Source: a virus (lineage: Duplodnaviria; Caudoviricetes). From it: DNA of 40,087 bases. Below, one piece after another: positions 6,190 through 23,146 of this stretch. How positions within the stretch are numbered: the first letter of the stretch is position 1; every line of letters begins with the position of its first letter. The notes beneath the pieces are model-generated. The model ran no database searches. It saw nothing but the letters and a program-made list of their open reading frames with translations, and was not told where the DNA came from. The position numbers and the translations under genes are program-made. The DNA is taken from IMG/VR virus record IMGVR_UViG_3300043171_000118, positions 1 through 40,087 of that record; one strand, 5' to 3'.

Positions 6190-6233
6190 TTGCGTATCAA
6201 ACGCGAAAAACTATGAGCATCAAGCCCATAGTT
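6190..6233 (-). terminator. Tandem hairpins with identical UUGAU loops; the first is terminator-like
   Basis: Minus strand AACTATGGGC-TTGAT-GCTCATAGTT-TTT, then GCGT-TTGAT-ACGC, between the lipoprotein gene and terS. Confidence 0.55.
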
Positions 6234-6265
6234 CCAATATAACTAATTAACAAGAAAAATGCTAA

Positions 6266-6616
6266 TTACTCAATACACCTCTTAATATCTTGACCATTAT
6301 AATACAAGGGAAAATATTCATTCCTTGTATCCCTGTAATAATCATGCATTCCACTATGCACAAGCAATTCATCAACAACCCCTTTCTGATTCTCAACTAT
6401 GGCCCATTTAGCTCCATCCTGAGTAATAAACAGAGTATCACCATTTGCGCTATCTATCTCTGTATCTACCCAGATAATAAACATTTCCTTTGGCTCCCCA
6501 TTGCTCCATTCCTCAGTAGAGCAAAACGCCTTACCTTGATATTCTGATTGTAACGGGCTTGTGCTATTTTCTGAGCAACCCATGATTAAGATTGCGATTA
6601 TTAATATATATTTCAT
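6266..6616 (-). CDS. Putative lipoprotein
   Basis: MK, hydrophobic stretch, lipobox-like LIMG-C, then Ser/Thr/Pro-rich linker. Confidence 0.7.
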   Translation of the reverse strand: MKYILIIAILIMGCSENSTSPLQSEYQGKAFCSTEEWSNGEPKEMFIIWVDTEIDSANGDTLFITQDGAKWAIVENQKGVVDELLVHSGMHDYYRDTRNEYFPLYYNGQDIKRCIE

Positions 6617-8613: not shown

Positions 8614-8614
8614 C

Positions 8615-8989
8615 CTATTCTTCTCCTTTGTTGCCCTTGGGAGGGGTTGGTAGTTCAGTATATCTATGTATTTTAATGTGTTCTGGTACTTTTTGAGCTG
8701 TATTTCCCAGGTTCCAAAAGCCACCAGAGTTATAGAAATGGATAGCGCAGAATCTTTTTCCCTTATAGATTTTATGTGTCAAGTTTTCACACTCACACCA
8801 ATAGGATTTTGATTTTACTTTAGGCTCAATTTCACCATCCACCCATCCCCCTGTCGTCTCGCTTCCCCCACCCTCTGAGGATAGGCGGTCGGCTACGGCT
8901 ATAGCTACAATTCCAGACATTTCACCAGTTACTTTAAGGTGTTTATGTATTTCATCTTGAACTGCATTTTCTATCTCTTCTCTATTCAT
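8615..8989 (-). CDS. Hypothetical protein
   Basis: Likely start MNREEIE at 8989 after GGAG. Confidence 0.6.
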   Translation of the reverse strand: MNREEIENAVQDEIHKHLKVTGEMSGIVAIAVADRLSSEGGGSETTGGWVDGEIEPKVKSKSYWCECENLTHKIYKGKRFCAIHFYNSGGFWNLGNTAQKVPEHIKIHRYTELPTPPKGNKGEE

Positions 8990-9483: not shown

Positions 9484-10018
9484 TAAATTTATGCATACAC
9501 CTCAAGCTCACCCCCTCAACCTCATGACCTGCGAAGTGCTTGCAAGACTCATAATTTACACCACCAATGAACACCGCCTCTCCTTCACGCTTTGAGCAAT
9601 AAGTAGAAAAATCACGGAAGTCAGTATATTTTTTATTTGGCCTCAACTCATACTCCACAATATCATACTCAGCAACGGGGGCAGGTGGTTCGGTGGGCCT
9701 AGATAATACTTTTATCAAGGCTTGCATATACCTGACCACATCATCGGCAGGCCTATTGCATAGCGTCTTCAATAGTACTCCAATCTCTTTTTTGATATAT
9801 CTGTAATCATAATTAACTACATCTTGACACACCTGATCCTTATCATCTTCCTCAAACAGGCTCTTGATTTCTGGGTGGTTGATGAGGTCGTCACGCATAC
9901 ACTCAAATTCACCGCTTTCTAAACCGCAATGATGGTGATTTTCATCTAGTATGTCTTTGTGCTTATCAAACATTTCGTCAAGTATCTCTATCATTCGTTC
10001 TGATGTGATTTTACTCAT
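9461..10018 (-). CDS. Tandem paralogue A, modular Cys-rich protein
   Basis: Shares MSKITxERMxEIL, NHPEIK, EPPAPVAEY and FAGHEVEG..RC.HKFN blocks with 10015-10578. Confidence 0.75.
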   Translation of the reverse strand: MSKITSERMIEILDEMFDKHKDILDENHHHCGLESGEFECMRDDLINHPEIKSLFEEDDKDQVCQDVVNYDYRYIKKEIGVLLKTLCNRPADDVVRYMQALIKVLSRPTEPPAPVAEYDIVEYELRPNKKYTDFRDFSTYCSKREGEAVFIGGVNYESCKHFAGHEVEGVSLRCMHKFNGGGESE

Positions 10019-10578
10019 CCCTCGCCTCCTTCATTAAATTTATGCTTACACCGTATACTCTTCCCCTCAACCTCATGACCTGCGAAGTTTTGTTTGCCAT
10101 TGGTTTTGCAATGTAATTCACAAAACATACAACCTACAGCGCAGTCTCCAATATATTCACACACCGGATCGCCAGTTTCTAGCGCCGTCTGCTGAACCTC
10201 AAATATCTCATACTCAGCAACGGGGGCAGGTGGTTCTATCGTTTTGCTGACGTCGGTCAAGAGTTCGGTAGGCCATATTAAGGGCGCCCCACAATTACCC
10301 ATGCCACAAGCTACATTATCTTTACACAATGAAAACTCACCACAAACAGGGCATCTATATTTATTAAGAGTGCTATCGTACTGATCTAAATCTACCTTGT
10401 TGTAAACGTCTGAATACAAACAATGTTCTACTTCTTCACACTCAAGCAGCCCTTTGATTTCGGGGTGGTTGACAATAGTACCCGTTACAGCATCACAGTC
10501 GTATGAGTCTAATACGGTATCATCTCTCAGTATTGCGCTTAGTATCTCTCGCATTCGTTCTGCAGTAATCTTACTCAT
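10015..10578 (-). CDS. Tandem paralogue B, modular Cys-rich protein
   Basis: Same blocks as paralogue A plus an internal CPVCG...C...CG ribbon. Confidence 0.75.
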   Translation of the reverse strand: MSKITAERMREILSAILRDDTVLDSYDCDAVTGTIVNHPEIKGLLECEEVEHCLYSDVYNKVDLDQYDSTLNKYRCPVCGEFSLCKDNVACGMGNCGAPLIWPTELLTDVSKTIEPPAPVAEYEIFEVQQTALETGDPVCEYIGDCAVGCMFCELHCKTNGKQNFAGHEVEGKSIRCKHKFNEGGEG

Positions 10579-10820
10579 GATTTCACCCCCATATACTTAT
10601 TCTTGAGCCAGTACTCGAATAGCTTTTTGCCTTCACCATTCCCAACATTAAATAAACATATTGAGCACTTCAACTCTTGCCGACAATCTGCTTTATGATT
10701 TGTACATCCTGAGCCTCGATTTTGCGTCAACTCCTTATGCAGCAGGTCTACTTTAGCCGCTCCGTACATATTCGCAGGAACCCGCTTCTCCCTTAACTTC
10801 TTTTCCATGGATTTGTTCAT
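10575..10820 (-). CDS. Hypothetical Cys-containing protein
   Basis: Coupled ORF with GAGG RBS. Confidence 0.6.
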   Translation of the reverse strand: MNKSMEKKLREKRVPANMYGAAKVDLLHKELTQNRGSGCTNHKADCRQELKCSICLFNVGNGEGKKLFEYWLKNKYMGVKS

Positions 10821-11146
10821 TAGTCTACCTCGCTATTATAAATAGGTATACTGTGTTTCTCTCTTTCTGCATCTGTTGGAGGTCTCTCAAAGTCGCAATC
10901 AGAGCAAGACATATGAGTCGCCCATTTTGGTATCGTTCTACTTGGAGTTAATTTGTGTTCACCATCATTTAAGCAATCAGCCTTTCTGCCATCGTATGAA
11001 AACATTATTGTCGTGAAGAAAACAAAGTTTTTATCACATCCTCCGCATACTTCTTCATGAGCCTTATCCTCTTCATAGGCAAAGCCATCATCATGACACA
11101 CGTCCTGTTGGTGTCCACAATAAGGACATTCAATATCTTTACTCAT
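10820..11146 (-). CDS. Zn-ribbon hypothetical protein
   Basis: ECPYCG...CGGC and C...H...CSDC motifs. Confidence 0.7.
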   Translation of the reverse strand: MSKDIECPYCGHQQDVCHDDGFAYEEDKAHEEVCGGCDKNFVFFTTIMFSYDGRKADCLNDGEHKLTPSRTIPKWATHMSCSDCDFERPPTDAEREKHSIPIYNSEVD

Positions 11147-11232
11147 AATTTACCAGTTCCAAAAATAGACGCACCGCTGAACTGGTAGGGAAAGCGTGAT
11201 CTTAGTCCAAAGCGTCTATTATAAAATTTCAT
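11143..11232 (-). CDS. Possible 29-aa leader peptide (MKFYNRRFGLRSRFPYQFSGASIFGTGKL)
   Basis: Runs through the structured RNA; its TGA overlaps the ATG of 10820-11146. Confidence 0.35.
   Translation of the reverse strand: MKFYNRRFGLRSRFPYQFSGASIFGTGKL
11164..11220 (-). ncRNA. Putative C4/CI-like antisense structured RNA 1
   Basis: 9-bp closing stem AATAGACGC/GCGTCTATT; inner hairpin CGCT-[TTCCCTACCAGTTC]-AGCG with loop complementary to GAACTGGTA sites within 11238-11247 and 11150-11159. Confidence 0.65.
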
Positions 11233-11254
11233 TTGAATTACCAGTTCGTTTTTA

Positions 11255-11283
11255 AATCTACTATACATTTGAAATTATTGCAA
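11255..11283 (-). promoter_or_regulatory. sigma70-like promoter
   Basis: TTGCAA-17 bp-TAGATT. Confidence 0.6.
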
Positions 11284-11412
11284 GCTATTTTTTGCAACCC
11301 CAATATAAACCAACAACCCAACCCCAGCAAGAAAGGCCGCCCCGACAATGACAACTGTTCTAAATGCCGCTCGTAGTAGTTCTGGTGCGGCTTGTGAATT
11401 ATTATTTTTCAC
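11275..11412 (-). CDS. Small single-pass membrane protein (45 aa)
   Basis: GTG start; hydrophobic VVIVGAAFLAGVGLLVYIGV; read manually. Confidence 0.45.
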   Translation of the reverse strand: MKNNNSQAAPELLRAAFRTVVIVGAAFLAGVGLLVYIGVAKNSLQ

Positions 11413-11413
11413 T

Positions 11414-11773
11414 CTATTCATCCTTTAGCTCAGGGTTCTGATGTATATTGCCTACAATGTGCTCAACATCGTCACTGTTTCCTGTTTTATAAGCGTCCCA
11501 GATGTCGTAACCAGAATCATCTACTATACAATTGCCATGGCCAGCTATATAAACAACATCACCTCCATAAATCGGGATGTTGTTTTTATTTTCTAACCCT
11601 ATGTAACGGCCTATTGTACCCTCATCAACTTCAATAAAACTACTATCTGATCCAAATGTTTCACCATCTTCAAGTATTGTCATTGCACCTGACCCGTACC
11701 ACCACCTCCTAACAGGAACGCCATATACCCACTTGCCTTCATTTGTTAATCCTCTAAATTTTATATCACTCAT
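11414..11773 (-). CDS. YopX family protein
   Basis: IKFRG....WVYG, TIGRYIGLENKN..IYGGDV and VGNIHQNPEL motifs. Confidence 0.85.
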   Translation of the reverse strand: MSDIKFRGLTNEGKWVYGVPVRRWWYGSGAMTILEDGETFGSDSSFIEVDEGTIGRYIGLENKNNIPIYGGDVVYIAGHGNCIVDDSGYDIWDAYKTGNSDDVEHIVGNIHQNPELKDE

Positions 11774-12024
11774 CCCTTCCCACCCCCTCTCCCAAGCAAA
11801 CAATTCCGCCCAGCATAATCAGTTAATTTAATAAGCTCATCCACAGAATACAAATGAGGCTTACTGTTTTTCTTCAATTTAAACCGCCCTGAGCTGTCTT
11901 TGCGTATTTCCACATTAGAGCCAAAGTTTGAGCGATATACCTTCTTGCTAGTCCTGCAAAATGAGTAGTTTGGGTGTTCTCGTAGGATTATGCGATTTCT
12001 GTGTTCTGGGTTAGTTTTTTTCAT
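11770..12024 (-). CDS. NUMOD4-like small DNA-binding protein (no HNH)
   Basis: Basic ORF loosely matching NUMOD4 (HPNYSF...KVYRS...LKKNSK..YSVDELI). Confidence 0.4.
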   Translation of the reverse strand: MKKTNPEHRNRIILREHPNYSFCRTSKKVYRSNFGSNVEIRKDSSGRFKLKKNSKPHLYSVDELIKLTDYAGRNCLLGRGGGKG

Positions 12025-12220
12025 TCGATTTTTTCTCCCAGTGTTTAACAAATTCGGTTCTCATTAATTCGCCATATTCTATAGCTTGATCTCTTGTTAA
12101 CTGACCAACTGGAAGCTCTTCTGACTGTTTGAACCCATCTTGCCTTAAGCCTGTACCGCTCGATTCAAAGGTTAAAAAGTTTGGCATTCTAGGCGGGTTT
12201 AATTTTTTACTTATATTCAT
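12011..12220 (-). CDS. Hypothetical protein
   Basis: 69-aa ORF in the operon. Confidence 0.6.
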   Translation of the reverse strand: MNISKKLNPPRMPNFLTFESSGTGLRQDGFKQSEELPVGQLTRDQAIEYGELMRTEFVKHWEKKSNEKN

Positions 12221-12267
12221 CCTAAACTTCCCCTTCTGGAATAACTTTAATTAATATCTCTATAGTC

Positions 12268-12462
12268 TTATTTTTCATTCTGTTGATCCTTTTGCTCACA
12301 TGGGAGCGATATTATCGTATAACCCTCTTTGGTTGCTATTGAAAAAAATCCAAAATCAAACCTTGTTCCAGTTGTAAATCTTGGGTGGTCTGATTGTATT
12401 ACACGCATAGCTATTTCATATCCGTATTTTTCTTCTGGAACCCATTTAACTATTATATTCAT
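12268..12462 (-). CDS. Hypothetical protein bounded by 20-bp direct repeats
   Basis: Likely start MNIIVKW at 12462 (ATGA coupling). Confidence 0.6.
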   Translation of the reverse strand: MNIIVKWVPEEKYGYEIAMRVIQSDHPRFTTGTRFDFGFFSIATKEGYTIISLPCEQKDQQNEK

Positions 12463-12477
12463 TCTGTTGATCCTTTT
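12274..12477. repeat. 20-bp direct repeat TTCATTCTGTTGATCCTTTT (12274-12293, 12458-12477)
   Basis: Exact match at both ends of one gene. Confidence 0.9.
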
Positions 12478-12608
12478 TGGTTGATTTGATCTTCCTGTTC
12501 TTCGCAATCTTCGCAATATCTTGGCACACCCTCTGATTCGCCCTCAATATATACCCCACATTCGGCGCAAAAATCACCATTCAATATTGCCTCTGCCATT
12601 TCGCCCAT
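12459..12608 (-). CDS. Small Zn-binding protein (49 aa, MGEMAEAILNGDFCAECG...PRYCEDC)
   Basis: Read manually; two CxxC motifs; GAGGA RBS. Confidence 0.7.
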   Translation of the reverse strand: MGEMAEAILNGDFCAECGVYIEGESEGVPRYCEDCEEQEDQINQKGSTE

Positions 12609-12612
12609 TATA

Positions 12613-12915
12613 TTATTCCTCTTTAATTGTTATTGAATGCCTGTCACAATCTATCGGGAGTTTCCATCGGTCTTTTTGTCTTCGCTCAACTAAGCCTCTA
12701 TATAATTTATCGTCTGATTTAGCCATATCTGAGTATGTGTCTATATCGTCTATTATCTGCCATAGCTTTTCAATTATTTCTTCTTTACTCATAGTGCCAA
12801 CCTTTTTAATTGATTTTGTGAAATTGTTTATTTTATCCATTGAATCTTGAGATATTTCTCCATTACCACCACTTGCTAATATTCCGTTTTTGTTACATGA
12901 TTTCTTCATCTTCAC
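12613..12915 (-). CDS. Hypothetical protein
   Basis: ORF in the operon; start uncertain. Confidence 0.5.
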   Translation of the reverse strand: MKMKKSCNKNGILASGGNGEISQDSMDKINNFTKSIKKVGTMSKEEIIEKLWQIIDDIDTYSDMAKSDDKLYRGLVERRQKDRWKLPIDCDRHSITIKEE

Positions 12916-13060
12916 CCTTTTCTGTTTCTTTATATAATTCTCTTGATAGTATCGATAAACACCCTACTGCTTCACAATATGTTATGCTATAAGTTTCTCT
13001 GTATCTATCCAATACCTCGTTAAGGTCTTCCATCATGTTTTCTACTATCGGTCTACTCAT
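12893..13060 (-). CDS. Hypothetical protein
   Basis: Likely start MSRPIVE after GAGG. Confidence 0.6.
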   Translation of the reverse strand: MSRPIVENMMEDLNEVLDRYRETYSITYCEAVGCLSILSRELYKETEKGEDEEIM

Positions 13061-13105
13061 ATCCTCATTCCTTCCCCTCACCTATCTGGTTATTGTTGTA
13101 TTCTG

Positions 13106-13528
13106 CTATAAATCGTTTATTCTCTTCGGTTGATTCTTTTCGTTGGCAATTCGGTTTATGTTGTTTATCTTTATCGCTATTTTCTCAGCGACATAGTTTT
13201 TTTCTTTTCCGAAATGCCCCTCAATTCCAAGTGGACAATCCTCAAAGAGCTCAACGTGATCATGTAATACATCGCTAATTGCCTTTATCATCTTCTCTTT
13301 ACGCACTTCATTCACGGCCTCACTTGATTTGCGTGTGTTCTGTTGTTCAATCATTTTTTCTTTATTTGTACTGTGATGCTGTGTAAATTTATTACGAATA
13401 AAACACCCTATGTAATGACCATTTACAGTGTAACTTTCACATATTAGCGTCCCTTCTTTTGCTGGGTGTGTTATGGCACATAGCGGGGCTCCACAATAAG
13501 GGCAATCCTTTAATTTCTCTTCACTCAT
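13106..13528 (-). CDS. Lar-like zinc-ribbon protein with C-terminal extension
   Basis: LKDCPYCG...NTR pattern. Confidence 0.55.
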   Translation of the reverse strand: MSEEKLKDCPYCGAPLCAITHPAKEGTLICESYTVNGHYIGCFIRNKFTQHHSTNKEKMIEQQNTRKSSEAVNEVRKEKMIKAISDVLHDHVELFEDCPLGIEGHFGKEKNYVAEKIAIKINNINRIANEKNQPKRINDL

Positions 13529-13737
13529 CCTTCATCCTTTTTCTCTTTTCTTGGTTGACGTATCAAAACAATAGCACCACTGAATTTATCTGAATATGAA
13601 CTCCATACTCTACACCAATGCGTTGATCCCATATTATCATGAGCCTTTCCGTACTTCTGGAATAAATACACTACAACCCCAAGTGGAATGCAACTCCAAA
13701 ATATACGCCTAGCTTTATTGTTCAATGGTTCATTCAT
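13525..13737 (-). CDS. Hypothetical protein
   Basis: Likely start MNEPLN after AAGGA. Confidence 0.55.
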   Translation of the reverse strand: MNEPLNNKARRIFWSCIPLGVVVYLFQKYGKAHDNMGSTHWCRVWSSYSDKFSGAIVLIRQPRKEKKDEG

Positions 13738-13779
13738 ACTATTCCTTTCCCTCACCTATCTGGTTATTGTTGTATTCTG

Positions 13780-14301
13780 CTATAAATCGTTTATTCTCTT
13801 CTTCAAATCATCAAGCTCTTTTTTGTACATTTCAGCTTTATTTCTCCATTTTATGATATTCTTTTTAAGTGTGTATATTCGCTTAACGCCCAGTCTATTG
13901 AATAAGAATATTTCATCTTTGGTTAGCTTTGCGGCATCCTTGCTTGTTACAGGGTTTTTAACGCAGTAAACTCCACCATCTTCACGGACAAAAAGCAATC
14001 CAGCTCTATCTGGAATCATATACAATTCTGTTTCTTTGCATATTAAATTTTCTGGAACTGCAAAATAAAAGTCTTTAATTCTGAAATCTTCATGTGTGTG
14101 CTTTTTCTTTTTCTCATTTTTCAAATCAGCTCTAGATATTTTTATTTCTATTTCCGTCATATAACCAGCATTGGTAACGACAAGCAAATCACACTCATGT
14201 ATACAGAATCCATGATTTATATTTGGTACTATTGATTTTTGAGTAAAATCAAAATATCTCATTAAAGCAACTTCAAGCTCTATAGTAGTTTTGTAATTCA
14301 T
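13780..14301 (-). CDS. MmcB-like PD-(D/E)XK nuclease-fold protein
   Basis: ECDLLVV...EIEIKISRADLK...FYFAVP...AGLL. Confidence 0.7.
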   Translation of the reverse strand: MNYKTTIELEVALMRYFDFTQKSIVPNINHGFCIHECDLLVVTNAGYMTEIEIKISRADLKNEKKKKHTHEDFRIKDFYFAVPENLICKETELYMIPDRAGLLFVREDGGVYCVKNPVTSKDAAKLTKDEIFLFNRLGVKRIYTLKKNIIKWRNKAEMYKKELDDLKKRINDL

Positions 14302-15086
14302 TATTTAAACACTCCCATTTCTTCCATTTCTTTGACTTTTGCGGCATCTCTAAGCCTTCTTTCTTCAACCGTTGACTCTTTATCGGGGTTAACGTGAATA
14401 GAGGGCTTGACATCGCTCTTACTGGAATTAAAGTTACTGTTAGCCCATCTTGAAAGCCTTAGCTGTAAACTCCAAGTTTTTTCAGACTCAAAACGCATTT
14501 TGCTGTTAGATTTATTCGGCTCTCTCCAATAGTCGTAGAAATCTCTTATAGTTTCTTTTGAGTATTCAGAAATAAAAACTTTTAAGGATTCATAAAAAGC
14601 GAGCTCACGAGCCAATAACTTCTCTTCTTTACTATTCTCTTCTGTTCTCTCCTCTCCTTTACTCTCCTCTCCTTTACTCTCCTCTGCTTGATTTTGCTTA
14701 GCATTTGCTTCCGTTTTGCTAGGCTTTTGCTTAGCATTTGCTTTAGCTTTGCCACCTTTTCGGCCAAATTCGACTCTTTTGGCCTTTATTTCATCGAGCT
14801 TATTCATTCTATCAGCCAATGATTTGGAGAAAAACTTGTCACCATCAATGGCAAAAAGAGAGAAATCCTCTACAACAGACTTTAAGACTTTTTCATCAGC
14901 CCTAGCGCTAAATGCTAATCTCTTGTAATTTGTTTCTAATTGGTATTCATCGGCAGATGCCAATAATTCTATCAGATACCAGAAAACACCATAACCCAAT
15001 AAACCATGAGACATTAATAGATCGACTATTTTCTCATCGTTATGTGCGTTAAAATCGTGTTTAAAATAATATGTGTGCTTTGCCAT
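14301..15086 (-). CDS. Replication initiator (DUF4373 / Lin1244-like N-terminal domain)
   Basis: YFKHDFNAHNDEKI..L....G..GYGVFWYLIELL; low-complexity linker; C-terminal FYDYW.E...KMRFE.EKTW....RL.RW. Confidence 0.8.
   Translation of the reverse strand: MAKHTYYFKHDFNAHNDEKIVDLLMSHGLLGYGVFWYLIELLASADEYQLETNYKRLAFSARADEKVLKSVVEDFSLFAIDGDKFFSKSLADRMNKLDEIKAKRVEFGRKGGKAKANAKQKPSKTEANAKQNQAEESKGEESKGEERTEENSKEEKLLARELAFYESLKVFISEYSKETIRDFYDYWREPNKSNSKMRFESEKTWSLQLRLSRWANSNFNSSKSDVKPSIHVNPDKESTVEERRLRDAAKVKEMEEMGVFK
14647..14753. promoter_or_regulatory. Putative replication origin (iterons) inside the initiator gene
   Basis: NTTTGC(T/C) every 11 bp at 14692-14747, including a 19-bp exact repeat; adjacent 15-bp tandem ACTCTCCTCTCCTTT. 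Confidence 0.55.
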
Positions 15087-15127
15087 TCACTTTGACTCCT
15101 AATCTAAATAACCTAATCCAACAAAAA

Positions 15128-15190
15128 ATATACGGCAACCCGATTAGGAAGAGCTGTCCACAAAGAGCAACCAATGTGTAAGCCGTACAT
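15128..15190 (-). ncRNA. Putative C4/CI-like antisense structured RNA 2
   Basis: Closing stem ATGTACGGC/GCCGTATAT then T-run; inner hairpin AGCTC-[TTCCTAATC]-GGGTT with loop complementary to GATTAGG (15112-15118) and GATTAGGAG (15096-15104, initiator RBS). Confidence 0.6.
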
Positions 15191-15193
15191 GAA

Positions 15194-15222
15194 TAGCTAC
15201 CTTTTTCCCTATTCCTTGTCAA
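15194..15222 (-). promoter_or_regulatory. sigma70-like promoter
   Basis: TTGACA-17 bp-TAGCTA (imperfect -10). Confidence 0.5.
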
Positions 15223-15230
15223 TAGGTTTT

Positions 15231-15734
15231 TTAGTATGAGCCATTTAAAATGTATTTAGCTCTGTAGCAAAGGTTTGGAGTGAGGCCACAATAAGCATCA
15301 ACCAATAGGAAATTTTCTCTCTGCCAATACAACATATCTGAATCATCGTCAAATATCACATACTTTGGAGTACCACCTATTATCTTTGCGTTTTTATCCA
15401 TCCAGTTATATATCTCAACGCCTCTCAGTATTCTATACCCGTCTACATATATGCTAGGCGTTTTCCCAATAACTTCACCAATAAACCCTGCATCATTTAA
15501 TATGCTTTGTAGGTATTCGACATCTCTACCCTTTCTCCATGTGCTACTTATAACAACCTTTGCGGAGGTATCCTTAATTAGGCCGTTAAGCATCTCCACT
15601 CTAGTTTTATCAATGTTACACTGTGGTAGCCCGACCTCTTCATATCGTTCATCCTGCGACTTCTCCCTGTAGAACAACTCATGGTTTAGTACTCCATCAA
15701 TATCTAGGAATATTATCTTATCGTATTTACCCAC
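15231..15734 (-). CDS. HAD-family phosphatase (HAD_SAK_2-like)
   Basis: IIFLDIDGVLN, VVISSTWR, RG.EI and YVIFDDD motifs. Confidence 0.9.
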   Translation of the reverse strand: MGKYDKIIFLDIDGVLNHELFYREKSQDERYEEVGLPQCNIDKTRVEMLNGLIKDTSAKVVISSTWRKGRDVEYLQSILNDAGFIGEVIGKTPSIYVDGYRILRGVEIYNWMDKNAKIIGGTPKYVIFDDDSDMLYWQRENFLLVDAYCGLTPNLCYRAKYILNGSY

Positions 15735-15765
15735 TCTTACTCCTTTGCCCGCTGTGGGCTGTTAA

Positions 15766-15924
15766 TTATTCACTAATATCTCTAAAATCATTGCAGCAAG
15801 TATCGCAACATTTATTTATATCGTGACCTTTTGTGCAATACTCGTCTGAATCTTCGCCATTGAACTCAAATACATATCTAGCGCAGTTGGTTCCGCTTTG
15901 GCCGCATTCGCACTCTTCACTCAT
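15766..15924 (-). CDS. Cys-rich microprotein (52 aa)
   Basis: Read manually: MSEECECG...CCDTCC; ATGA coupling. Confidence 0.55.
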   Translation of the reverse strand: MSEECECGQSGTNCARYVFEFNGEDSDEYCTKGHDINKCCDTCCNDFRDISE

Positions 15925-16094
15925 ATCTCATCCTCACACTTACACTCAACAGTATTATCCCACCCAGAAAACGATTCAAAATGTCTGCAATCTTCGCACC
16001 CGATTGACCCAACCTTTTTATCTTCATAGAAAGGGCATTGAGTTGTAGAAACACCACCATCTTCATTTGGATTATATTTTATTGATTCACTCAT
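15921..16094 (-). CDS. Cys-rich microprotein (57 aa)
   Basis: Read manually: MSESIKY...CPF...VGSIGCEDCRHF...VEC; GGAGG RBS. Confidence 0.6.
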   Translation of the reverse strand: MSESIKYNPNEDGGVSTTQCPFYEDKKVGSIGCEDCRHFESFSGWDNTVECKCEDEI

Positions 16095-16153
16095 CTACTT
16101 CCTCCATTGTGGCTTACGAGCTTTACTTATCATATATGTATCGTTAGTTGTGT

Positions 16154-16324
16154 TCATTCCCATTCCTCATCATCGTGCATTGTCGTACCCATCAAGTCGC
16201 AAACGTCCATTGTTTCATCTTCATCAATATCTAAATCCATATCTTGCTCTCTCTCAAGCGCTTCCGCTTCTCTGGTTTCTTGTTTAGCTGTATTGTATTG
16301 TCTATTTGGGCGGCCTCGTGCCAT
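16154..16324 (-). CDS. Microprotein with basic N-terminus and very acidic C-terminus (56 aa)
   Basis: Read manually: MARGRPNR...DMDLDIDEDE...HDDEEWE. Confidence 0.55.
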   Translation of the reverse strand: MARGRPNRQYNTAKQETREAEALEREQDMDLDIDEDETMDVCDLMGTTMHDDEEWE

Positions 16325-16425
16325 AAATTACTCTCTTTTTAATCCGTTTATATTCCCAAAAATAAGCCACTGTGACGGGTTGAATTTCCTAGCCAGATCT
16401 CCTATTGTCACAGTGACCTATTTAT

Positions 16426-16764
16426 TTATGCTCTCTTATTTAACTGTATCGGCCTAACTTCAAACCTAAGTACTAACTGATAAAGTTCTTCACCAAATAC
16501 ACCTCTTAGGCTCGTATATTCTGTATGGCGCTTTACCCATGACTTGAAATTTGAATTACTAATGGTCGGATATTGTGTCTTGAATGATTCACGCTGTAAT
16601 AGTATTGACTTTGGATCATTCTTTTTTAGCCAGCGAACCATGCTTACTTGCTCATTAATACAGGGCTTACATTTGGTCGTCTTGCCATCTGGTGAAGCTG
16701 TCCTGTTGCCGTATGCGCTTAATGGTAGTGTTTCTTCGCATATTCTACATTTTTTAGCGCTCAT
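16426..16764 (-). CDS. Protein with N-terminal Zn finger of the endonuclease VII-associated type
   Basis: KKCRIC..TLPLSAY......DG....CKPC; likely start MSAKK. Confidence 0.6.
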   Translation of the reverse strand: MSAKKCRICEETLPLSAYGNRTASPDGKTTKCKPCINEQVSMVRWLKKNDPKSILLQRESFKTQYPTISNSNFKSWVKRHTEYTSLRGVFGEELYQLVLRFEVRPIQLNKRA

Positions 16765-16979
16765 TCTGCAGCTCTCCCACGCTCGATTAATTCGGCACAT
16801 TGTTTAGCGTCTTCGATTGAGGCTAGGTATATTTTGCCAATGTTTGAGCTATGTATAATTAAATGTGTATTGTACCGTATCTCATACTTAGAGATTTCTT
16901 CATTTTCAATATCTTCAGCGGTGTACCCGTATAGTACATTTTTTAATATGTCACTTTCTTTCCATTTGATAAGACTCAT
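16761..16979 (-). CDS. Hypothetical protein
   Basis: Coupled ORF with GGAGG RBS. Confidence 0.6.
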   Translation of the reverse strand: MSLIKWKESDILKNVLYGYTAEDIENEEISKYEIRYNTHLIIHSSNIGKIYLASIEDAKQCAELIERGRAAE

Positions 16980-17515
16980 TTAGCCTCCATAGTCGATTCC
17001 ATGCCATTAATAAAGTCGGCAACCTTTACGGCTGTTGATTGATCCAACTTGTATTCATGCATTTTATACTTACCATCAGATTGGATATAGCAACCATCGC
17101 AACACATTTCCTTGTTTAGTTTTTCGATCTGCTTATCAACTGTCTCGTTGAATTCCTTCTTATTAGCCTCCATTTTGGCAACTAATTTAAGGAGGTATTC
17201 ACGTTTTGTCAAAGGCGCAGACTTAAACTCTGTAGCGTTTTCCAGTTCTAGTGTTGTTGTTAGTTTTGGCTCTGGGTTGAACCATGATAGGAATGCTTCT
17301 GCTTTTATGTCGTAACTTCTAGAGCTTATAGTTATTGATTTTTCGTAAATATGGACTGTATGCCTAGATTTGTAATCATCTTTCTTTATGATGTCGCCAC
17401 CATTCCATTTGTACCCAACATCCCTTAGTTTCATTAATACATCATCTGTTCGTTGAACCCTTATTTCAACACCTTTCTCTTTAATTAATTGCTCTTTTGT
17501 TGTAATATTATTCAT
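16976..17515 (-). CDS. Hypothetical protein
   Basis: 179-aa coupled ORF. Confidence 0.7.
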   Translation of the reverse strand: MNNITTKEQLIKEKGVEIRVQRTDDVLMKLRDVGYKWNGGDIIKKDDYKSRHTVHIYEKSITISSRSYDIKAEAFLSWFNPEPKLTTTLELENATEFKSAPLTKREYLLKLVAKMEANKKEFNETVDKQIEKLNKEMCCDGCYIQSDGKYKMHEYKLDQSTAVKVADFINGMESTMEAK

Positions 17516-18060
17516 TTTGACTCTCCTTTAAATTTCCACTTATACCCAGCGTGACTAGTATATCTATTGTAGCAACAATTTGAAATGCTAGATTGTCTAA
17601 ATCCGCCCCTATCTGCCTCGCCCATTGATTTCCACTCTTTTATAAAGCTACCATCCATATCCATTTGAATCACTTTTTTTGATCCAAACCCGTTTCTCCT
17701 GATTTTAACACTGCGAGAAATTCCAGTTCCATGATTAGCGTTTTCTTTAGCTGTTACCCATTCAAGATTTTCAACCCTATTGTCTGTCTTTATTTCGTTA
17801 ATATGGTTAACTTGTGGCTTGTTTTCTTGGTTTGGTATAAAAGCCATTGCCACTAGTCTGTGTGCTCTAAATTGGTTTTTAATGCGGCTTTTTGATAGGT
17901 TCACACTAAGATATCCGTTGCTTTTAAATATGCTCATTTGCTTGGTGTTTTTTTCTCTACGGTTAAAGCACAAACATCTAATTCCTCCAATATTAGATGC
18001 TTGGTATAGGCCCTCAAATGAAGGTATATCCACCCATATCTCCCCATCTGAAGCACTCAT
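17512..18060 (-). CDS. NUMOD4-HNH-NUMOD1 homing endonuclease
   Basis: EIWVDIPSFEGLYQASN, HRLVA.AFIPN, VNHINEIKTDNRVENLEW and C-terminal NUMOD1-like helix. Confidence 0.9.
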   Translation of the reverse strand: MSASDGEIWVDIPSFEGLYQASNIGGIRCLCFNRREKNTKQMSIFKSNGYLSVNLSKSRIKNQFRAHRLVAMAFIPNQENKPQVNHINEIKTDNRVENLEWVTAKENANHGTGISRSVKIRRNGFGSKKVIQMDMDGSFIKEWKSMGEADRGGFRQSSISNCCYNRYTSHAGYKWKFKGESK

Positions 18061-18290
18061 TTTGTAATACCCTCCGCTATCTCTATTAAGTTTCTTGTTC
18101 CTTCTGGCTTAGTCGCCCATCCTTCTTTAATGAATTTTGCAAAAGCTATTCTAGATGTGTTTTCCTTTAATTGCTTCTTAAGACATTCACCTATTGTTAA
18201 TGTTTTTCTCTGCCATAGCATAGACCAGCAAGTTTTCTCTGTGTATCCGCTAACCTGCGCTTGAATGTATTTATTTGTTTTATTAGACAT
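18057..18290 (-). CDS. First gene of the leftward operon; small basic protein, possibly a regulator
   Basis: AGGAGG RBS directly behind the promoter. Confidence 0.6.
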   Translation of the reverse strand: MSNKTNKYIQAQVSGYTEKTCWSMLWQRKTLTIGECLKKQLKENTSRIAFAKFIKEGWATKPEGTRNLIEIAEGITK

Positions 18291-18311
18291 TTAATGTCCT
18301 CCTTTTGATAA

Positions 18312-18340
18312 AGTATAATTTAAGGGATTTTAGTTGTCAA
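18312..18340 (-). promoter_or_regulatory. Leftward early sigma70-like promoter
   Basis: TTGACA-17 bp-TATACT. Confidence 0.8.
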
Positions 18341-18395
18341 TCATTATTCCTTGATTTTAAATTTAATTTTAATTTAACTTTTATTTAATAATCCA

Positions 18396-18424
18396 TTGAC
18401 AACCCAATCCAACTATTATATTAT
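18396..18424 (+). promoter_or_regulatory. Rightward early sigma70-like promoter
   Basis: TTGACA-17 bp-TATTAT with AT-rich upstream region. Confidence 0.75.
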
Positions 18425-18457
18425 TTGGGTAGGAATTAATTAACAAGTGAGAAGATT

Positions 18458-18844
18458 ATGAGTAGAATAAATTTACAAGACAACGCAATGTCAATGGTAA
18501 TGAAAATGAGTGACGGAAATCCTGGCGCTATGGATGCAATGATGCAAATGATGGAATCTAAATGTGATCCAGATCATTTTATCGGCCCTATCGGATCAAT
18601 ACTATCTCTTGATTCTCATGGAATATACGGGACTGACATATATGTTCTTTTTAGTGATATATGTGGTAAAGATGTTGTTAAGACTTGCGCTGTACTTAGA
18701 GCTGTTCAGCTTGGATTATTTGAAGAGGGCAAACTTCAAGATGCTTGCAGTAGACAGGATTATTCAGGTAGAGAGATAATTGACCCAGATGACCTACTTA
18801 AAAAAGTTCAAGACCGACTACCAAATTTTGGAAAAAATAATTAA
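18458..18844 (+). CDS. Hypothetical phage protein (GNPGA...GIYGTDIYVL motif)
   Basis: First ORF of the rightward operon. Confidence 0.75.
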   Translation: MSRINLQDNAMSMVMKMSDGNPGAMDAMMQMMESKCDPDHFIGPIGSILSLDSHGIYGTDIYVLFSDICGKDVVKTCAVLRAVQLGLFEEGKLQDACSRQDYSGREIIDPDDLLKKVQDRLPNFGKNN

Positions 18845-18867
18845 CCAACCAACAAAAGCGAGATAAT

Positions 18868-19686
18868 ATGATATTAATAATAGGCGAATCAGGAACAGGA
18901 AAGAGCACATCAATCGAAGAACTCAATCACGAAGAAACTTTCATCATTCAAGTATTGGGTAAGCCATTACCGTTCAGAGGGTGGAGACGTAAATATTTAC
19001 CGTATTCATCTGTTACCAAAACAGGCAACATATACACTAGTGATAATTGTGTTCAGATTTTGGCATTAATAGAAGAGATTGACAAGAACATGCCACAAAT
19101 TAAGAACATCATTATTGATGATCTTCAATACATGATGTCAAACGAGTTCATGCGTAGAGTTAAAGAGAAAGGGTTTGACAAGTACAACGATATAGCGCAT
19201 AATGCATGGGCTATAATTAACAAACTTAACGGTGTTCGTGAAGATATTGTACCAATAGTAATGAGTCATTCAGAAAGCAATGATGCAGGTAAAACAAAGT
19301 TAAAGACACTTGGCAAGCTTCTGGATGATAAGGTGGTTATTGAGGGCATGTTTACCGTAGTTCTTCAATCAATAATCTTTGATAGTCAGTATCTATTTAT
19401 TACTCAAAATAACGGCTCTAACACCTGTAAGAGTCCACGGGGAATGTTCGCAACCGATACTATACCCAATGACCTTAAATCAATCACAGACCAGTATAAC
19501 AAGTACAACAACGCAGACATTCAAGAGCTTAAAGATGATGTAACAAAAGAGATAGGCGTTGCTGACTCTGTTGAGTCTCTTAATGCTGTATGGCCTCGAT
19601 ATAAAATGTTTCACAAAGACGAAATGATTATATCTCTTTTCAAGGCGAAAAAAACAGAGCTTGAAATGAACAATGGAGAAGCGTAA
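18868..19686 (+). CDS. Sak4-like (AAA_24) ATPase / ssDNA-annealing recombinase
   Basis: Walker A GESGTGKS, Walker B IIIDD, KTLGKLLD..V.IEGMFT, KSP.GMF; adjacent to Gp157. Confidence 0.85.
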   Translation: MILIIGESGTGKSTSIEELNHEETFIIQVLGKPLPFRGWRRKYLPYSSVTKTGNIYTSDNCVQILALIEEIDKNMPQIKNIIIDDLQYMMSNEFMRRVKEKGFDKYNDIAHNAWAIINKLNGVREDIVPIVMSHSESNDAGKTKLKTLGKLLDDKVVIEGMFTVVLQSIIFDSQYLFITQNNGSNTCKSPRGMFATDTIPNDLKSITDQYNKYNNADIQELKDDVTKEIGVADSVESLNAVWPRYKMFHKDEMIISLFKAKKTELEMNNGEA

Positions 19687-20168
19687 TGAATTTGTATGAA
19701 ATCAATTCAAACCTTGAAGAACTATTGATGAGCTCCGTTGATGAGGACGGGGTTATCAAAGATGAATTCGAGGGAAAGCTCGACGAACTGTTTGCAGTCA
19801 GAGACGACAAAATGCTCAACTGTGCAAAGTACATTAAAAACCAGTCAGCATTTGCCGATGCAATTAAAAAAGAAGCCGACTCTTTAACCAGTAGACTGAA
19901 GTCTGTAAACAACCGTATAGAGTGGATGAAAAAATACATCCTATCAAATGTTGAGGCAGGGTATAAGGTTAAAGATTCTCAGGCTGAAATATCTACACGA
20001 AAAAGCTCATCTGTAAAAATAACCGATCAAGTATTAATTCCAGAAGAGTTTCTTAATGAGACACCTGCCACTTATTCACCAGACAAAAAAGCTATCAAGG
20101 CGGCTTTAAAAAATGGCGATGTGTTAGGCGCTAAAATGGTTGATAATGTTAATCTGAGCATTAAGTAA
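19686..20168 (+). CDS. Siphovirus Gp157 family protein
   Basis: MNLYEI start, coiled coil, IPEEF...PDKKAIKAALKNG.V.GA C-terminus. Confidence 0.85.
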   Translation: MNLYEINSNLEELLMSSVDEDGVIKDEFEGKLDELFAVRDDKMLNCAKYIKNQSAFADAIKKEADSLTSRLKSVNNRIEWMKKYILSNVEAGYKVKDSQAEISTRKSSSVKITDQVLIPEEFLNETPATYSPDKKAIKAALKNGDVLGAKMVDNVNLSIK

Positions 20169-20404
20169 TGAAGATACACGTCAAACTATATCTTGACCAT
20201 CACAACTTGCACGGGGAGTTCATCCCTTGTGTGGCTTGTGGCGCTCCAAGCGTGGACATCCATCACATTGATTTTAAGGGTATGGGTGGCACTGGTGGCA
20301 AGGACGTGATTGAGAATCTTATAGCTCTGTGCAGAGAGTGCCATGTGAAGGCGCATAGTAGTAAATTGAGTAAGGATTACTTAAGAGGGCTTATAAATGA
20401 GTGA
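20168..20404 (+). CDS. Small HNH endonuclease
   Basis: CVACG...DIHHI...NLIALCRECH. Confidence 0.85.
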   Translation: MKIHVKLYLDHHNLHGEFIPCVACGAPSVDIHHIDFKGMGGTGGKDVIENLIALCRECHVKAHSSKLSKDYLRGLINE

Positions 20405-20807
20405 ATACATATGCAGTGAAGTATACTTTTCCATGTTAATAGACAACAAACGTGTAACCGTAACTGAAACAGATTGTAAGGTTAAGGTAACTAAGCCTAG
20501 AAACATAAAACACCACAGGCTATGTTTCGGGATGCTGAACTATACCTATAAGCACATGAATGAGCGCAAAGGAATAACAACGGCATACGACCTCTTATTG
20601 ATATTCAAAGATATTTACGAGTACTATACGCCAATACCAACTAACAAAGGAGTAGTTAAGAAATACTATTCACTCTCATTTGAATCAATGGGTGAGGATG
20701 AATTTAAACCTATTGCTGAGAACTTAAAGGCATTCTGCTATGCAACTTTGAATGGTGATAAGCGCAGTAAGGAAGTCATACAGGGGCTATTAGATATAGA
20801 ATTTTAA
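20397..20807 (+). CDS. DUF1367 / NinB-like protein
   Basis: KPRN.KHHR..F and SLSFESMGEDEF motifs. Confidence 0.55.
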   Translation: MSEYICSEVYFSMLIDNKRVTVTETDCKVKVTKPRNIKHHRLCFGMLNYTYKHMNERKGITTAYDLLLIFKDIYEYYTPIPTNKGVVKKYYSLSFESMGEDEFKPIAENLKAFCYATLNGDKRSKEVIQGLLDIEF

Positions 20808-20817
20808 TAAACTTCAC

Positions 20818-20873
20818 CCCGCAACACACGCCAAGGATTGTTTCAAAGTTCATTTATTCTTGTGTGTTGTGGG
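20818..20873 (+). other. Long intergenic hairpin
   Basis: CCCGCAACACAC/GTGTGTTGTGGG outer stem plus inner AAGGAT/ATTCTT stem. Confidence 0.6.
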
Positions 20874-20895
20874 TTAATTAAATTTAAGGGAAAAT

Positions 20896-21279
20896 ATGAG
20901 TAGAGAAATAAAATTTAGAGTATGGAATAAGCGATTGAAAAGGATGTTTTCTGTTTATTCTATAAATTGGCAGACGGGAATAATACAATGTACTGACTGT
21001 ATAACAGGTACATCACATACTTTCGGTATGATTGACTGTGAATTATTGCAATTTACAGGACTTAAAGACAAGAACGGTGTTGAGATTTACGATGGTGATA
21101 TACTATCTAATAATATGTGCGTCAGAAAGCTGAGTGTAGTTATATGGGAAGAATACGGGGCTAGATTCATATGTAAAGAATTCCTAAATGGATGCATGGT
21201 TCATTGGGCTAAAAACTTCTCTTCACTTAGCGTAGTCGGCAACATCCACGAAAACCCAGAACTACTAAACAAGGAATAA
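20896..21279 (+). CDS. YopX family protein
   Basis: REIKFRVW, QFTGLKDKNGVEIYDGDI and VVGNIHENPELL motifs. Confidence 0.9.
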   Translation: MSREIKFRVWNKRLKRMFSVYSINWQTGIIQCTDCITGTSHTFGMIDCELLQFTGLKDKNGVEIYDGDILSNNMCVRKLSVVIWEEYGARFICKEFLNGCMVHWAKNFSSLSVVGNIHENPELLNKE

Positions 21280-21280
21280 C

Positions 21281-21805
21281 ATGAGTATAACAAGTAACAT
21301 GACTATAATAGAGAAATCACAGGAAGTACACAGGAACGCCGTTGAGCATGGTTGGTATGATGATAAGACTTGCCATGATACTAAAATGGCTCTGGTTGTC
21401 GGTGAGGTAATCGAGACTATGGACGCTATAGCAAACAACAGGGCTGATGACAGGTGTGATAAAGGTATCGACTTAACCAACTTAGAGGAAGAAATAGCGG
21501 ACGTATACCTAAGAACACTAGACTATATCGGCCACCTCAGATATGCGTCATTTGTGAGATATGACGATCCAGTTATCAGAGAGAGAATACAGTTTCTATT
21601 CAAAGGTAAATCTGATGGAGCTATGATAGGTACTCTCATCAAGAGCATTGTACGGAATTTCGGCTCTGGAACTGGCTATGATTATATCTTAGCGATGGTT
21701 GAAGAGTATGCAATTATCAAGGGTGTGGATCTTGAGCGGGCTGTGATGGTTAAGCATGAGTATAATAAGGGTCGAGCGTATCGGCATGGGAATAAGAAGT
21801 TTTAA
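21281..21805 (+). CDS. MazG-like nucleotide pyrophosphohydrolase
   Basis: GEV.E...EEEIADVYLR..D and K.EYNK.RAYRHGNK motifs. Confidence 0.75.
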   Translation: MSITSNMTIIEKSQEVHRNAVEHGWYDDKTCHDTKMALVVGEVIETMDAIANNRADDRCDKGIDLTNLEEEIADVYLRTLDYIGHLRYASFVRYDDPVIRERIQFLFKGKSDGAMIGTLIKSIVRNFGSGTGYDYILAMVEEYAIIKGVDLERAVMVKHEYNKGRAYRHGNKKF

Positions 21806-21835
21806 ATTAATTAACTAATAACAAAAGGAAGTAAT

Positions 21836-22132
21836 ATGTCAGAAGAAATAAATTTAACTAAAAAAGAGATCGACAAAGATAGAGTCGAAGTGTGTGAAGC
21901 GATAAGCAGAATGCTGGATTTTCCAGATGAAAACGGAATATATCCGACAACAGCTTGCTTTAATAGGCTTGTAGGGTATATACAAGGTATTCGATTTGAG
22001 ACGCTTGGATTTGCTCATGCCGAGGCTTGCAGTTGTCTTGATAAAGGCGGAGACCCAAGAAAAACAGAAACATTTGAACTTATCGAAAACTATGAAAAAG
22101 CATTTGAATTAAAAAAAGAGATAGTGACTTAA
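21836..22132 (+). CDS. Hypothetical protein
   Basis: AAGGA RBS; 98-aa ORF. Confidence 0.65.
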   Translation: MSEEINLTKKEIDKDRVEVCEAISRMLDFPDENGIYPTTACFNRLVGYIQGIRFETLGFAHAEACSCLDKGGDPRKTETFELIENYEKAFELKKEIVT

Positions 22133-22144
22133 CATGTTTTAACC

Positions 22145-22199
22145 TACCTTTTCACCCATGACAACAAATCTCGCTTGATTGGTTAGGTCAGGGAAGGTA
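22145..22199 (+). ncRNA. Putative 3'-UTR structured RNA 3 with anti-RBS loop
   Basis: TACCTTTTC/GGGAAGGTA stem; inner AACAAATC-TCGCTT-GATTGGTT; ATCTCGCTT complementary to 18856-18864. Confidence 0.4.
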
Positions 22200-22230
22200 T
22201 TATCTTAATTGGTAATGCCTTTTTTATTTT
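22194..22230 (+). terminator. Rho-independent terminator
   Basis: AAGGTATTATC-TTAATT-GGTAATGCCTT followed by a T-rich tract. Confidence 0.75.
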
Positions 22231-22259
22231 CGGATTTTATAGATTATTATACGATTAGG

Positions 22260-22288
22260 TTGAATTGTCCGTACAATGTATGTACATT
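22260..22288 (+). promoter_or_regulatory. sigma70-like promoter overlapped by a repeated operator-like motif
   Basis: TTGAAT-17 bp-TACATT; TGTCCGTACA and TGTATGTACA 11 bp apart. Confidence 0.5.
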
Positions 22289-22318
22289 TGGATAAGAGAT
22301 AACGAGAAAGGATGCGAG

Positions 22319-22627
22319 ATGAAAGATTTTAAAGAATTACCAATAGAAATGCAAAACAGAGTGAATAGCCTTGCTGATTCAATGGGGGTTTCTGCTTCTG
22401 ATACTTATTCCCTTATCACATTAACAATCAACGGCATGGAGCATGATAAGGTTGTTGACTGCATTCCCGATATGCCTCAAGAAAGTAGAGAGTATCTTTG
22501 CGAAACATATATGTGTTGTGCTGTTGATCGGTTCAAAAAATTCAGTGAACAATTCCAGACGAGCGATGTTATGCGTGAAGGATTTGCCGGTATGGTTTAT
22601 AACAAATTAACTACTAATGAGGTTTAA
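22319..22627 (+). CDS. Hypothetical protein
   Basis: Likely start MKDFKEL after AAAGGA. Confidence 0.65.
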   Translation: MKDFKELPIEMQNRVNSLADSMGVSASDTYSLITLTINGMEHDKVVDCIPDMPQESREYLCETYMCCAVDRFKKFSEQFQTSDVMREGFAGMVYNKLTTNEV

Positions 22628-22793: not shown

Positions 22794-23019
22794 AGAGAGT
22801 AACGATAAATTGAAGCCGTGCCCATTTTGTGGAGGTGAGGCTGAATTTAAAAGAGTTGGCAGTGCAAGACAATCTGAAATTGTGGGCTGTACCGATTGCC
22901 ATTGTGAGCTTGAGTCAGGAGATAGAGATCATTATTCTGGTAGCTCTTGGAACTATAGAGTTGATCAAGCATGGGAATTACTTAAACAAGGACATACAAA
23001 TGCCAAAACCAAACGATAA
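22786..23019 (+). CDS. Lar family restriction-alleviation protein
   Basis: LKPCPFCGGEA...VGCTDC...WNYR. Confidence 0.8.
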   Translation: MSKESNDKLKPCPFCGGEAEFKRVGSARQSEIVGCTDCHCELESGDRDHYSGSSWNYRVDQAWELLKQGHTNAKTKR

Positions 23020-23146
23020 AAGAGTAGAATTTAGAATGCCTAATGATTTAGTAGAAGACGCTAAAACTTGGGCTTATCACCTAAACATATCATTCAGTAA
23101 ATTTGTACGTGATGCAATTGAAGAGAAAATAGAAAGGCGCCAATGA
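23000..23146 (+). CDS. Ribbon-helix-helix (CopG/Arc-like) DNA-binding protein
   Basis: KRVEFRMPNDL...NISFSKFVRDAIEEKI; AAGGA RBS. Confidence 0.75.
   Translation: MPKPNDKRVEFRMPNDLVEDAKTWAYHLNISFSKFVRDAIEEKIERRQ

Follow-up and report, generated by a model that had tools for sequence, protein, structure and literature searches.

Three folded intergenic elements in a tailed-phage genome

We analysed the virus record IMGVR_UViG_3300043171_000118 over its whole length (the window; 40,087 nt, linear, CheckV 100%), which carries the terminase, portal, capsid and tape measure genes of a tailed phage. Its leftward early operon, which includes the replication initiator, starts at 18340, and a rightward operon with Sak4-like, Gam-like and NinB genes starts at 18396. 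Three intergenic stretches are predicted to fold and to present nucleotides complementary to the translation starts of certain phage genes: element 1 (E1) and element 2 (E2) on the minus strand and element 3 (E3) on the plus strand. These three complementarities had been proposed in a first-pass annotation, and all of them were confirmed at the same places. Two relatives were available for comparison, G001 (42.8 kb, with terminal repeats) and G002 (a 22-kb fragment), as well as a sequencing run recorded as marine sediment (X1) that contains 0.99 of the window's words and may be its source.

E1 places two copies of one target around a putative folded core

E1 is the strongest of the three elements. 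Its order on the minus strand is a promoter-like site, a target, the ATG of a leader, a closing stem, a loop hairpin, four T, a second target and the ATG at 11146. The predicted promoter-like site (11255-11283) consists of a -35 TTGCAA, a 17-nt spacer and a -10 TAGATT, with the same letters in G001 and G002; it falls below the threshold of the promoter consensus scan and is absent from the 60 of 61 sites listed. The upstream target (11239-11247) begins 7 nt past the -10 and ends 6 nt ahead of the leader ATG (11232). This ATG opens a leader open reading frame (ORF) of 29 codons (11143-11232), the stop of which overlaps the ATG of the next gene (ATGA). That gene (10820-11146) is the first behind E1, encodes a small Cys-rich protein and varies among the relatives.

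The putative small RNA (11164-11220) has a 9-bp closing stem (11212-11220 with 11164-11172) around a hairpin of 4 bp with a 14-nt loop (11179-11192), the last 9 nt of which form the anti-target. The downstream target (11151-11159) lies 4 nt ahead of the ATG at 11146 and ranks as the best of 74 gene starts for the E1 loop. Both targets have the sequence GAACTGGTA, and these are its sole two copies on the minus strand of the window. The window has a single 9-mer triplet of target, anti-target and target within 130 nt, and 60 block shuffles gave none. When we inspected 17 loci with homologues of the gene behind E1, no such element was seen upstream of them.

Directly upstream of E1 lies a conserved 48-codon ORF with one hydrophobic stretch and no Pfam match (window 11275-11421, minus strand; G001 about 9895-10023, plus strand; also in G002). 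Its last codons hold the -35 hexamer of E1.

Loop and target of E1 change together in a relative

Paired changes were counted by anchored coordinates and no covariance model was built, because MAFFT misregisters the divergent elements. The register of E1 is the same in the window, G001 and G002: the -10, 7 nt, a 9-nt target, 6 nt and the ATG, and a loop made of 5 nt plus the 9-nt anti-target. G002 carries another allele at the same position. Five of its nine target letters differ and the same five loop letters change along with them; on these sequences, loop/target covariation, which had been named as a check on the idea, was shown for E1. Between G002 and the window, two of the four pairs of the inner hairpin are changed on both sides and one on one side, and the downstream site of G002 pairs over 7-8 nt. 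In G001 the promoter, target and anti-target are as in the window, and the closing stem has 10 bp with new letters. Compared with the window, four of nine closing-stem pairs are changed on both sides and none is broken, and the 5′ inner part differs though the targets are the same.

The leader ORF is open in all three genomes, in three different frames. In G001 it has 36 codons and ends 8 nt inside the next gene, and the G002 leader reads on in frame into the ATG of the gene that follows. The shuffle odds of an open leader are 0.21, 0.10 and 0.09, values that are not fully independent.

Run X1 holds both E1 alleles (depths 21 and 13). A contig of run X3 keeps E1, as only one of its 21 listed differences falls within 11143-11255, and places the window's E1 allele behind an altered promoter and ahead of G002's downstream gene. 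Read by eye, its -10 is replaced by the hexamer of the rightward promoter with the spacing kept. Cassette, promoter and downstream gene of E1 thus apparently reassort. Another run (X2, share 0.13) gave no coverage of E1. Searches for further homologues returned mainly what was already in hand: the loop/target pattern matched 56 loci, the only true relative among them being G001 (L025); the hairpin scaffold matched 106 loci, 21 of them with a complement of at least 7 nt nearby and only G001 (L096) with the layout; and the promoter pattern gave relatives at 2 of 14 loci, both known before.

E2 lies before the replication initiator

E2 resembles E1 in its closing stem, loop hairpin and targets. 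The common layout proposed earlier holds for these parts, but the first inner hairpin is weak and absent in G002, and the promoter-like site of E2, like that of E1, is missing from the consensus scan (60 of 61 sites listed). This predicted site (15194-15222, minus strand) has TTGACA, 17 nt and a weak -10. The putative small RNA (15128-15190) has a 9-bp closing stem (15182-15190 with 15128-15136), a 9-nt loop (15142-15150) and then a T-run. Its two targets (15111-15119 and 15096-15104) share GATTAGG (15112-15118 and 15098-15104), and the second lies over the ribosome-binding site (RBS) of the replication initiator (14301-15086; PHROG 2562, Pfam Lin1244_N), which is the best of 74 gene starts for the E2 loop. 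No perfect upstream site was found for E2; its targets are downstream only. Two of the three frames are open across it. E2 alone is less unusual, since the window contains five target triplets of 7 nt and its shuffles have 1.1 on average.

In G001, TTGACA stands at the matching place behind the upstream stop codon, and next comes an unrelated 65-nt rod (z-score -5.3) with 11 nt of its loop complementary to the transcript's 5′ end. At this position the design, as far as it can be read from sequence, recurs and the sequence does not. A search with the replication initiator gave one distant locus only.

Other features near E2 are noted for completeness. A very stable rod of G001 (6193-6290, plus strand) stands ahead of an HNH gene and the initiator, and of 71 starts its loop also has the best match, over 11 nt, at that of gene 20232 (minus strand). 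On the plus strand of the window a 6-bp hairpin with a T-run (15208-15232) overlaps the TTGACA of E2; a counter-transcript across E2 like lambda OOP was considered, and no convincing promoter was seen. Inside the initiator gene are 15-nt and 11-nt tandem repeats (14619-14752), a location typical of an origin.

E3 is predicted to pair with the first gene starts of its own operon

E3 (22145-22199, plus strand) lies inside the rightward operon and is a rod-shaped hairpin of 55 nt (z-score -2.7) with a pairing segment of 21 nt (22166-22186). Directly 3′ of it stands a terminator-like hairpin with a T-run (22196-22225), which shares 4 nt with the rod and is absent from the terminator scan. With its rod plus terminator, E3 is a different fold from E1 and E2. 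The first-pass account of E1 and E3 described the complementarities correctly but lacked both this terminator and the leader ORF through E1.

The targets of E3 lie behind the rightward promoter of the recombination operon (18396-18424, plus strand; homologous in G001). At the operon's first gene (start 18458) the target 18438-18452 forms a predicted 16-bp duplex of -17.0 kcal/mol (rank 2 of 74), and at the Sak4-like gene (start 18868) the target 18847-18864 forms one of 9+6 bp and -20.0 kcal/mol (rank 1 of 74). Some gene starts in this ranking are those of the ORF finder. Apart from the opposite strand of E3 itself, the window has AAGCGAGAT of E3 at one further site only, 18856, where the Sak4-like gene starts. 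Ranks 1 and 2 for the operon's first two genes were equalled by 1 of 60 shuffles. Since the targets are 3.3-3.7 kb away, they favour action in trans. A weaker target of 7 nt (22313-22320) lies over the ATG at 22319 and ranks 4 of 74 with a 15-nt loop.

The first RBS after the homologous rightward promoter differs between the window and G001, and the G001 element at the E3 position fits the starts of its own operon (worst rank 4 of 69; 2 of 40 shuffles as good). Cross pairs between the two genomes' elements rank only 29 and 16. The stem of the G001 element has 15 bp (z-score -4.6), and its targets are one of 11 nt upstream and one at an RBS. Two motifs present in the window only in E1, once each, have two copies in G001, one in its E1 and one at the E3 position, in the same order; by its sequence, this element is a paralogue of E1. 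The idea that one scaffold is used several times therefore holds for G001, while in the window E3 does not have the same scaffold.

Past the E3 terminator, 22226-22322 (plus strand) contains TAGATT, 7 nt, a further E2-type site of uncertain role (22253-22261), an in-frame TTG 4 nt behind it (22265) and a hairpin (22268-22292). This echoes the spacing of E1 but without a -35. Three imperfect repeats of the E3 target precede the ATG at 22319, and a perfect TATAAT is found on the minus strand at 22247-22252.

Cognate pairs are strongest, with some cross-talk

In the energy matrix the cognate pairs were the strongest for each loop (E1 -13; G002 E1 -15/-10; E2 -10/-8; E3 -20/-17/-13 kcal/mol). The two E1 loop/target alleles are well separated, with -13 to -15 kcal/mol for cognate and -2 to -6 kcal/mol for non-cognate combinations. 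However, the orthogonality claimed for the pairs is not complete: the E1 loop pairs with the 18458 start at -11.3 kcal/mol, and for the E2 loop the G002 E1 targets (about -7 kcal/mol) are as strong partners as its own first site (-7.7 kcal/mol).

Repressor and integrase content

Tyrosine integrase, resolvase, S24 peptidase, HTH_3 and ParA-type families were found in none of the three records (window, G001 and G002). No antirepressor family was seen among 74 window proteins in PHROGs or 52 in Pfam. However, a small ribbon-helix-helix (Arc/CopG-like) gene of 48 aa is present at 23000-23146 (plus strand; PHROG 582, E 1e-4; Pfam CopG_antitoxin 26.3 bits, cut-off 28), a possible protein repressor. 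The description of the phage as having no recognisable repressor was therefore overstated and stands for repressors of the CI type. The first leftward gene of G001 has a weak helix-turn-helix match (E 0.005), and a faint match (E 0.077) was obtained for a homologue of the first leftward gene in the window. The 77-aa product of the latter window gene gave a poor predicted structure (predicted local distance difference test, pLDDT, 41), no usable match in the Atlas and no profile match to its G001 counterpart.

A model of trans repression and its alternatives

We consider E1-E3 likely, by a modest margin of belief, to be small antisense RNAs that repress in trans and would bring about delayed shut-off and allele-specific exclusion; transcription, processing, leader translation and repression are all inferred. 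The three folded stretches would yield small antisense RNAs that close early operons after a first burst of expression. E1 would be transcribed from its own promoter, and its folded core of 55-60 nt would be released by processing at the AU-rich stretch ahead of it or by a stop at the T-run. As the core accumulates, its loop could pair with newly made transcripts at two places, the start of the leader and the RBS of the next gene; this would block the leader ribosome and so the coupled translation downstream. E2 would act in like manner on the replication initiator. E3 would be the terminated 3′ end of the recombination message and would pair with the start regions of genes one and two of that operon. 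Pairing requires matching letters, and an allele would therefore silence phages of its own type alone, as with the C4 RNAs of P1 and P7.

Several results weigh against this model. The isolated folds of E1 and E2 are no stabler than shuffles (z-scores -1.1 and -1.3), and the lowest-energy fold of E1 lacks the claimed open loop, the claimed fold being 0.5 kcal/mol higher. The covariation of E1 amounts to two alleles in three genomes and one event, and E2 has no homologue among the relatives. For E3, the 21-nt segment and the target genes were picked after inspection, and a cruder first test was weak (2 of 12 operon starts; 4/60 and 2/60 shuffles at 8 bp; nothing at 7 bp, 15/60). The RBS word of G001 also stands ahead of genes that do not belong to that operon, and the window has it twice. 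A single descriptor picks out P1 c4, E1, E2 and two G001 elements, but it was made after the elements had been seen, missed the E1 of G002, and gave one extra match in G001, a doubtful match in P4 and five matches in 218 kb of background (none of these five with an anti-word of at least 8 nt). Finally, on full leaders the pairings in cis are as stable as the closing-stem fold or stabler (-25.7 against -21.9 kcal/mol for E2; -21.8 against -16.7 kcal/mol for the E1 of G002), which a switch in cis explains equally well.

Such a switch is the main rival of trans repression, although we judge it clearly the less probable of the two. The loop would pair within the same transcript with the 5′ site or the downstream RBS, leader translation or folding kinetics would decide between them, and no diffusible RNA would be involved. 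The alternative conformers lie within 1-5 kcal/mol, the initiator RBS is almost fully paired in the predicted E2 read-through RNA (probability of being unpaired 0.01), and covariation is expected under action in cis too. Ribosome-driven refolding of a coupled leader is known from repY-repZ of ColIb-P9. An open, coupled leader would suit it here as well, as in isrK-orf45-anrP (PMC4825925). What a switch in cis leaves unexplained are the E3 targets kilobases upstream and why each genome keeps the closing stem but with letters of its own. Action in cis and in trans is not mutually exclusive, and the two may coexist. It is improbable, in our opinion, that the RNA instead activates in trans by opening a silent cis fold, as short IsrK does on its own long transcript (PMC4825925). 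E2 starts near a predicted start site and ends in a T-run, and short and read-through forms are plausible, but the loop is complementary to the RBS itself and binding in trans would cover it, not free it.

The repeated words might also be DNA operators for a protein, for example the ribbon-helix-helix product of 23000-23146, with direct and inverted copies mimicking a loop/target pair. Some ribbon-helix-helix repressors bind such short repeats. The E2 word consists of two direct copies 14 nt apart and one inverted copy, returns at 22253 and has a one-mismatch version in the spacer of the rightward promoter. Operators do not explain why stems are compensated or why the word keeps its place within a 14-nt loop, and G001 shares the E1 word yet has no tblastn match to the ribbon-helix-helix protein; we regard this explanation as very unlikely overall and as more tenable for E2 alone. 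That E1 is functional and E2 and/or E3 arose by chance, in that pyrimidine-rich loops match purine-rich RBSs anyway, is a less remote thought, doubtful but deserving some weight, and compatible with trans repression by E1. The E2 triplet is only 7 nt for one site, and E3 has its different fold and the weak cruder test. On the other hand, the ranking among 74 gene starts controls for RBS composition, and G001 has the same genome-matched pattern.

The interpretation as a multi-channel antisense-RNA control is therefore partly supported. Going further, we put forward tentatively that, in place of a CI-type repressor, a non-integrating phage lineage uses several independent antisense-RNA channels to time its replication, recombination and accessory operons, and that co-occurring relatives exchange whole loop/target cassettes, each allele being an RNA-based exclusion group. 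To our knowledge, control of the C4/CI type has been described from a few enterobacterial temperate phages, with one RNA per phage and tied to immunity. E1-E3 share the C4/CI logic without Rfam-detectable sequence, occur several per genome, stand ahead of replication and recombination genes, and are of a type that occurs in phages without detectable integrase or CI. If the model is true, such control extends beyond what sequence families reveal, and non-integrating phages use it for timing or exclusion. In that case the two natural alleles of E1 would be a ready orthogonal pair, offering compact 9-nt programmable translation switches.

Gene content and relatives

A contig of 41,190 nt codes for proteins identical to those of the window, which may therefore lack about 1 kb. 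Compared with G001 and G002, the tail genes are 60-78% identical, the capsid gene of the window has no tblastn match, and the recombinases differ, with Sak4-like plus Gam-like in the window against an exonuclease pair. Mosaicism between these genomes, as it appears in their sequences, is strong. Contigs of the runs omit small genes at several places relative to the window. A 61-nt direct repeat (98% identical) lies at gene ends at 13067-13127 and 13741-13801, and shorter repeats at 12274/12458; all are possible recombination points for the exchange of small genes. The window has a gene of the PAPS reductase family (7669-8724, minus strand) and no tRNA or tmRNA. RNA-repair genes are present in the window (HAD_SAK_2 phosphatase, 15231-15734, minus strand) and in G001 (RtcB ligase, 40327-41484, minus strand). 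Further relatives were found neither with the capsid protein or a 172-aa protein, nor with an 81-aa protein in metagenomes or the tail protein in genomes, nor among cultured phages by DNA or with a 981-aa protein.

Comparison with C4, P4 CI and IsrK

We compared the elements with PMC5320573, PMC2864571, PMC4825925, PMC3632133, PMC5737381, PMC8546580 and PMC5415839. Most subscription papers lay outside the search; in the literature that it covered, we saw no account of such elements in phages that do not integrate. A description of c4-2 given in the supplement of PMC5737381 may affect their novelty. The proposed check against Rfam (C4 and the c4-a1b1 clan) turned out negative. The window has no match at E≤5, the three genomes have none to C4 at E≤10, and the three regions searched alone have none at E≤10, whereas P4 as positive control scored 74.9 bits with C4 (RF01695; gathering cut-off 45 bits). 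The elements are therefore not C4 members.

P1 C4 nevertheless has the same order as E1 in its annotation and sequence: promoter, upstream targets, folded RNA, a downstream target a few nt past the closing stem, RBS and ATG. In the Rfam consensus of C4, the loop of the second hairpin begins with UUUCC and its 3′ strand ends in CGGU, and this hairpin resembles the one in E1 and E2. E1 in all three genomes and the G001 paralogue have a target on either side within one transcript, the one downstream being at the RBS. Allele-specific loop/target pairs, described for C4 of P1 and P7 (PMC5320573), are also seen in E1. In contrast to C4, the elements here are shorter (55-63 against 77 nt) and AU-rich, with a closing stem of 7-10 bp instead of 17 bp. 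The closing stem and the b′-like hairpin are present here, but no UUCG tetraloop hairpin. Where C4 has a′ plus b′, E1 and E2 each show a single recognition word; the pairing of E3 is in two blocks, but its fold is another. Moreover, a leader ORF crosses the RNA, the controlled genes are not icd/ant, and there are several elements per genome. RNase P processing sets the 5′ end of C4 at GG(W) (PMC5320573); the 5′ arms of E1 and E2 lack an initial GG.

In P4, an ORF (eta/kil) reads through the CI RNA. P4 matches the C4, isrK and c4-a1b1 models and this phage none of them; the seqA/IsrK models RF01394 and RF03163 matched neither the window nor the three regions, with P4 as control positive. The upstream site of E1 differs from that of P4 in being an unstructured 9-mer at the predicted 5′ end, and with no integrase the phage has, unlike P4, no evident lysogenic immunity to maintain. 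What they have in common is a small RNA between complementary upstream and downstream sites on the same transcript, as for CI/seqA/seqC (PMC4825925 and PMC3632133). Gifsy-1 IsrK/orf45/anrP (PMC4825925) has short and read-through forms and a leader ORF with an unconserved peptide, the stop of which overlaps the next start (AUGA) with translational coupling. E1 shares the leader stop overlapping the next start and, as a prediction, the short and read-through forms of one leader. IsrK activates, and its pairing spans about 30 nt within orf45, whereas here a 9-nt match lies on the RBS and the leader ORF begins ahead of the folded core. By its arrangement, E1 is laid out like P1 c4 and P4 CI and would act as C4 and CI do while standing outside their family.

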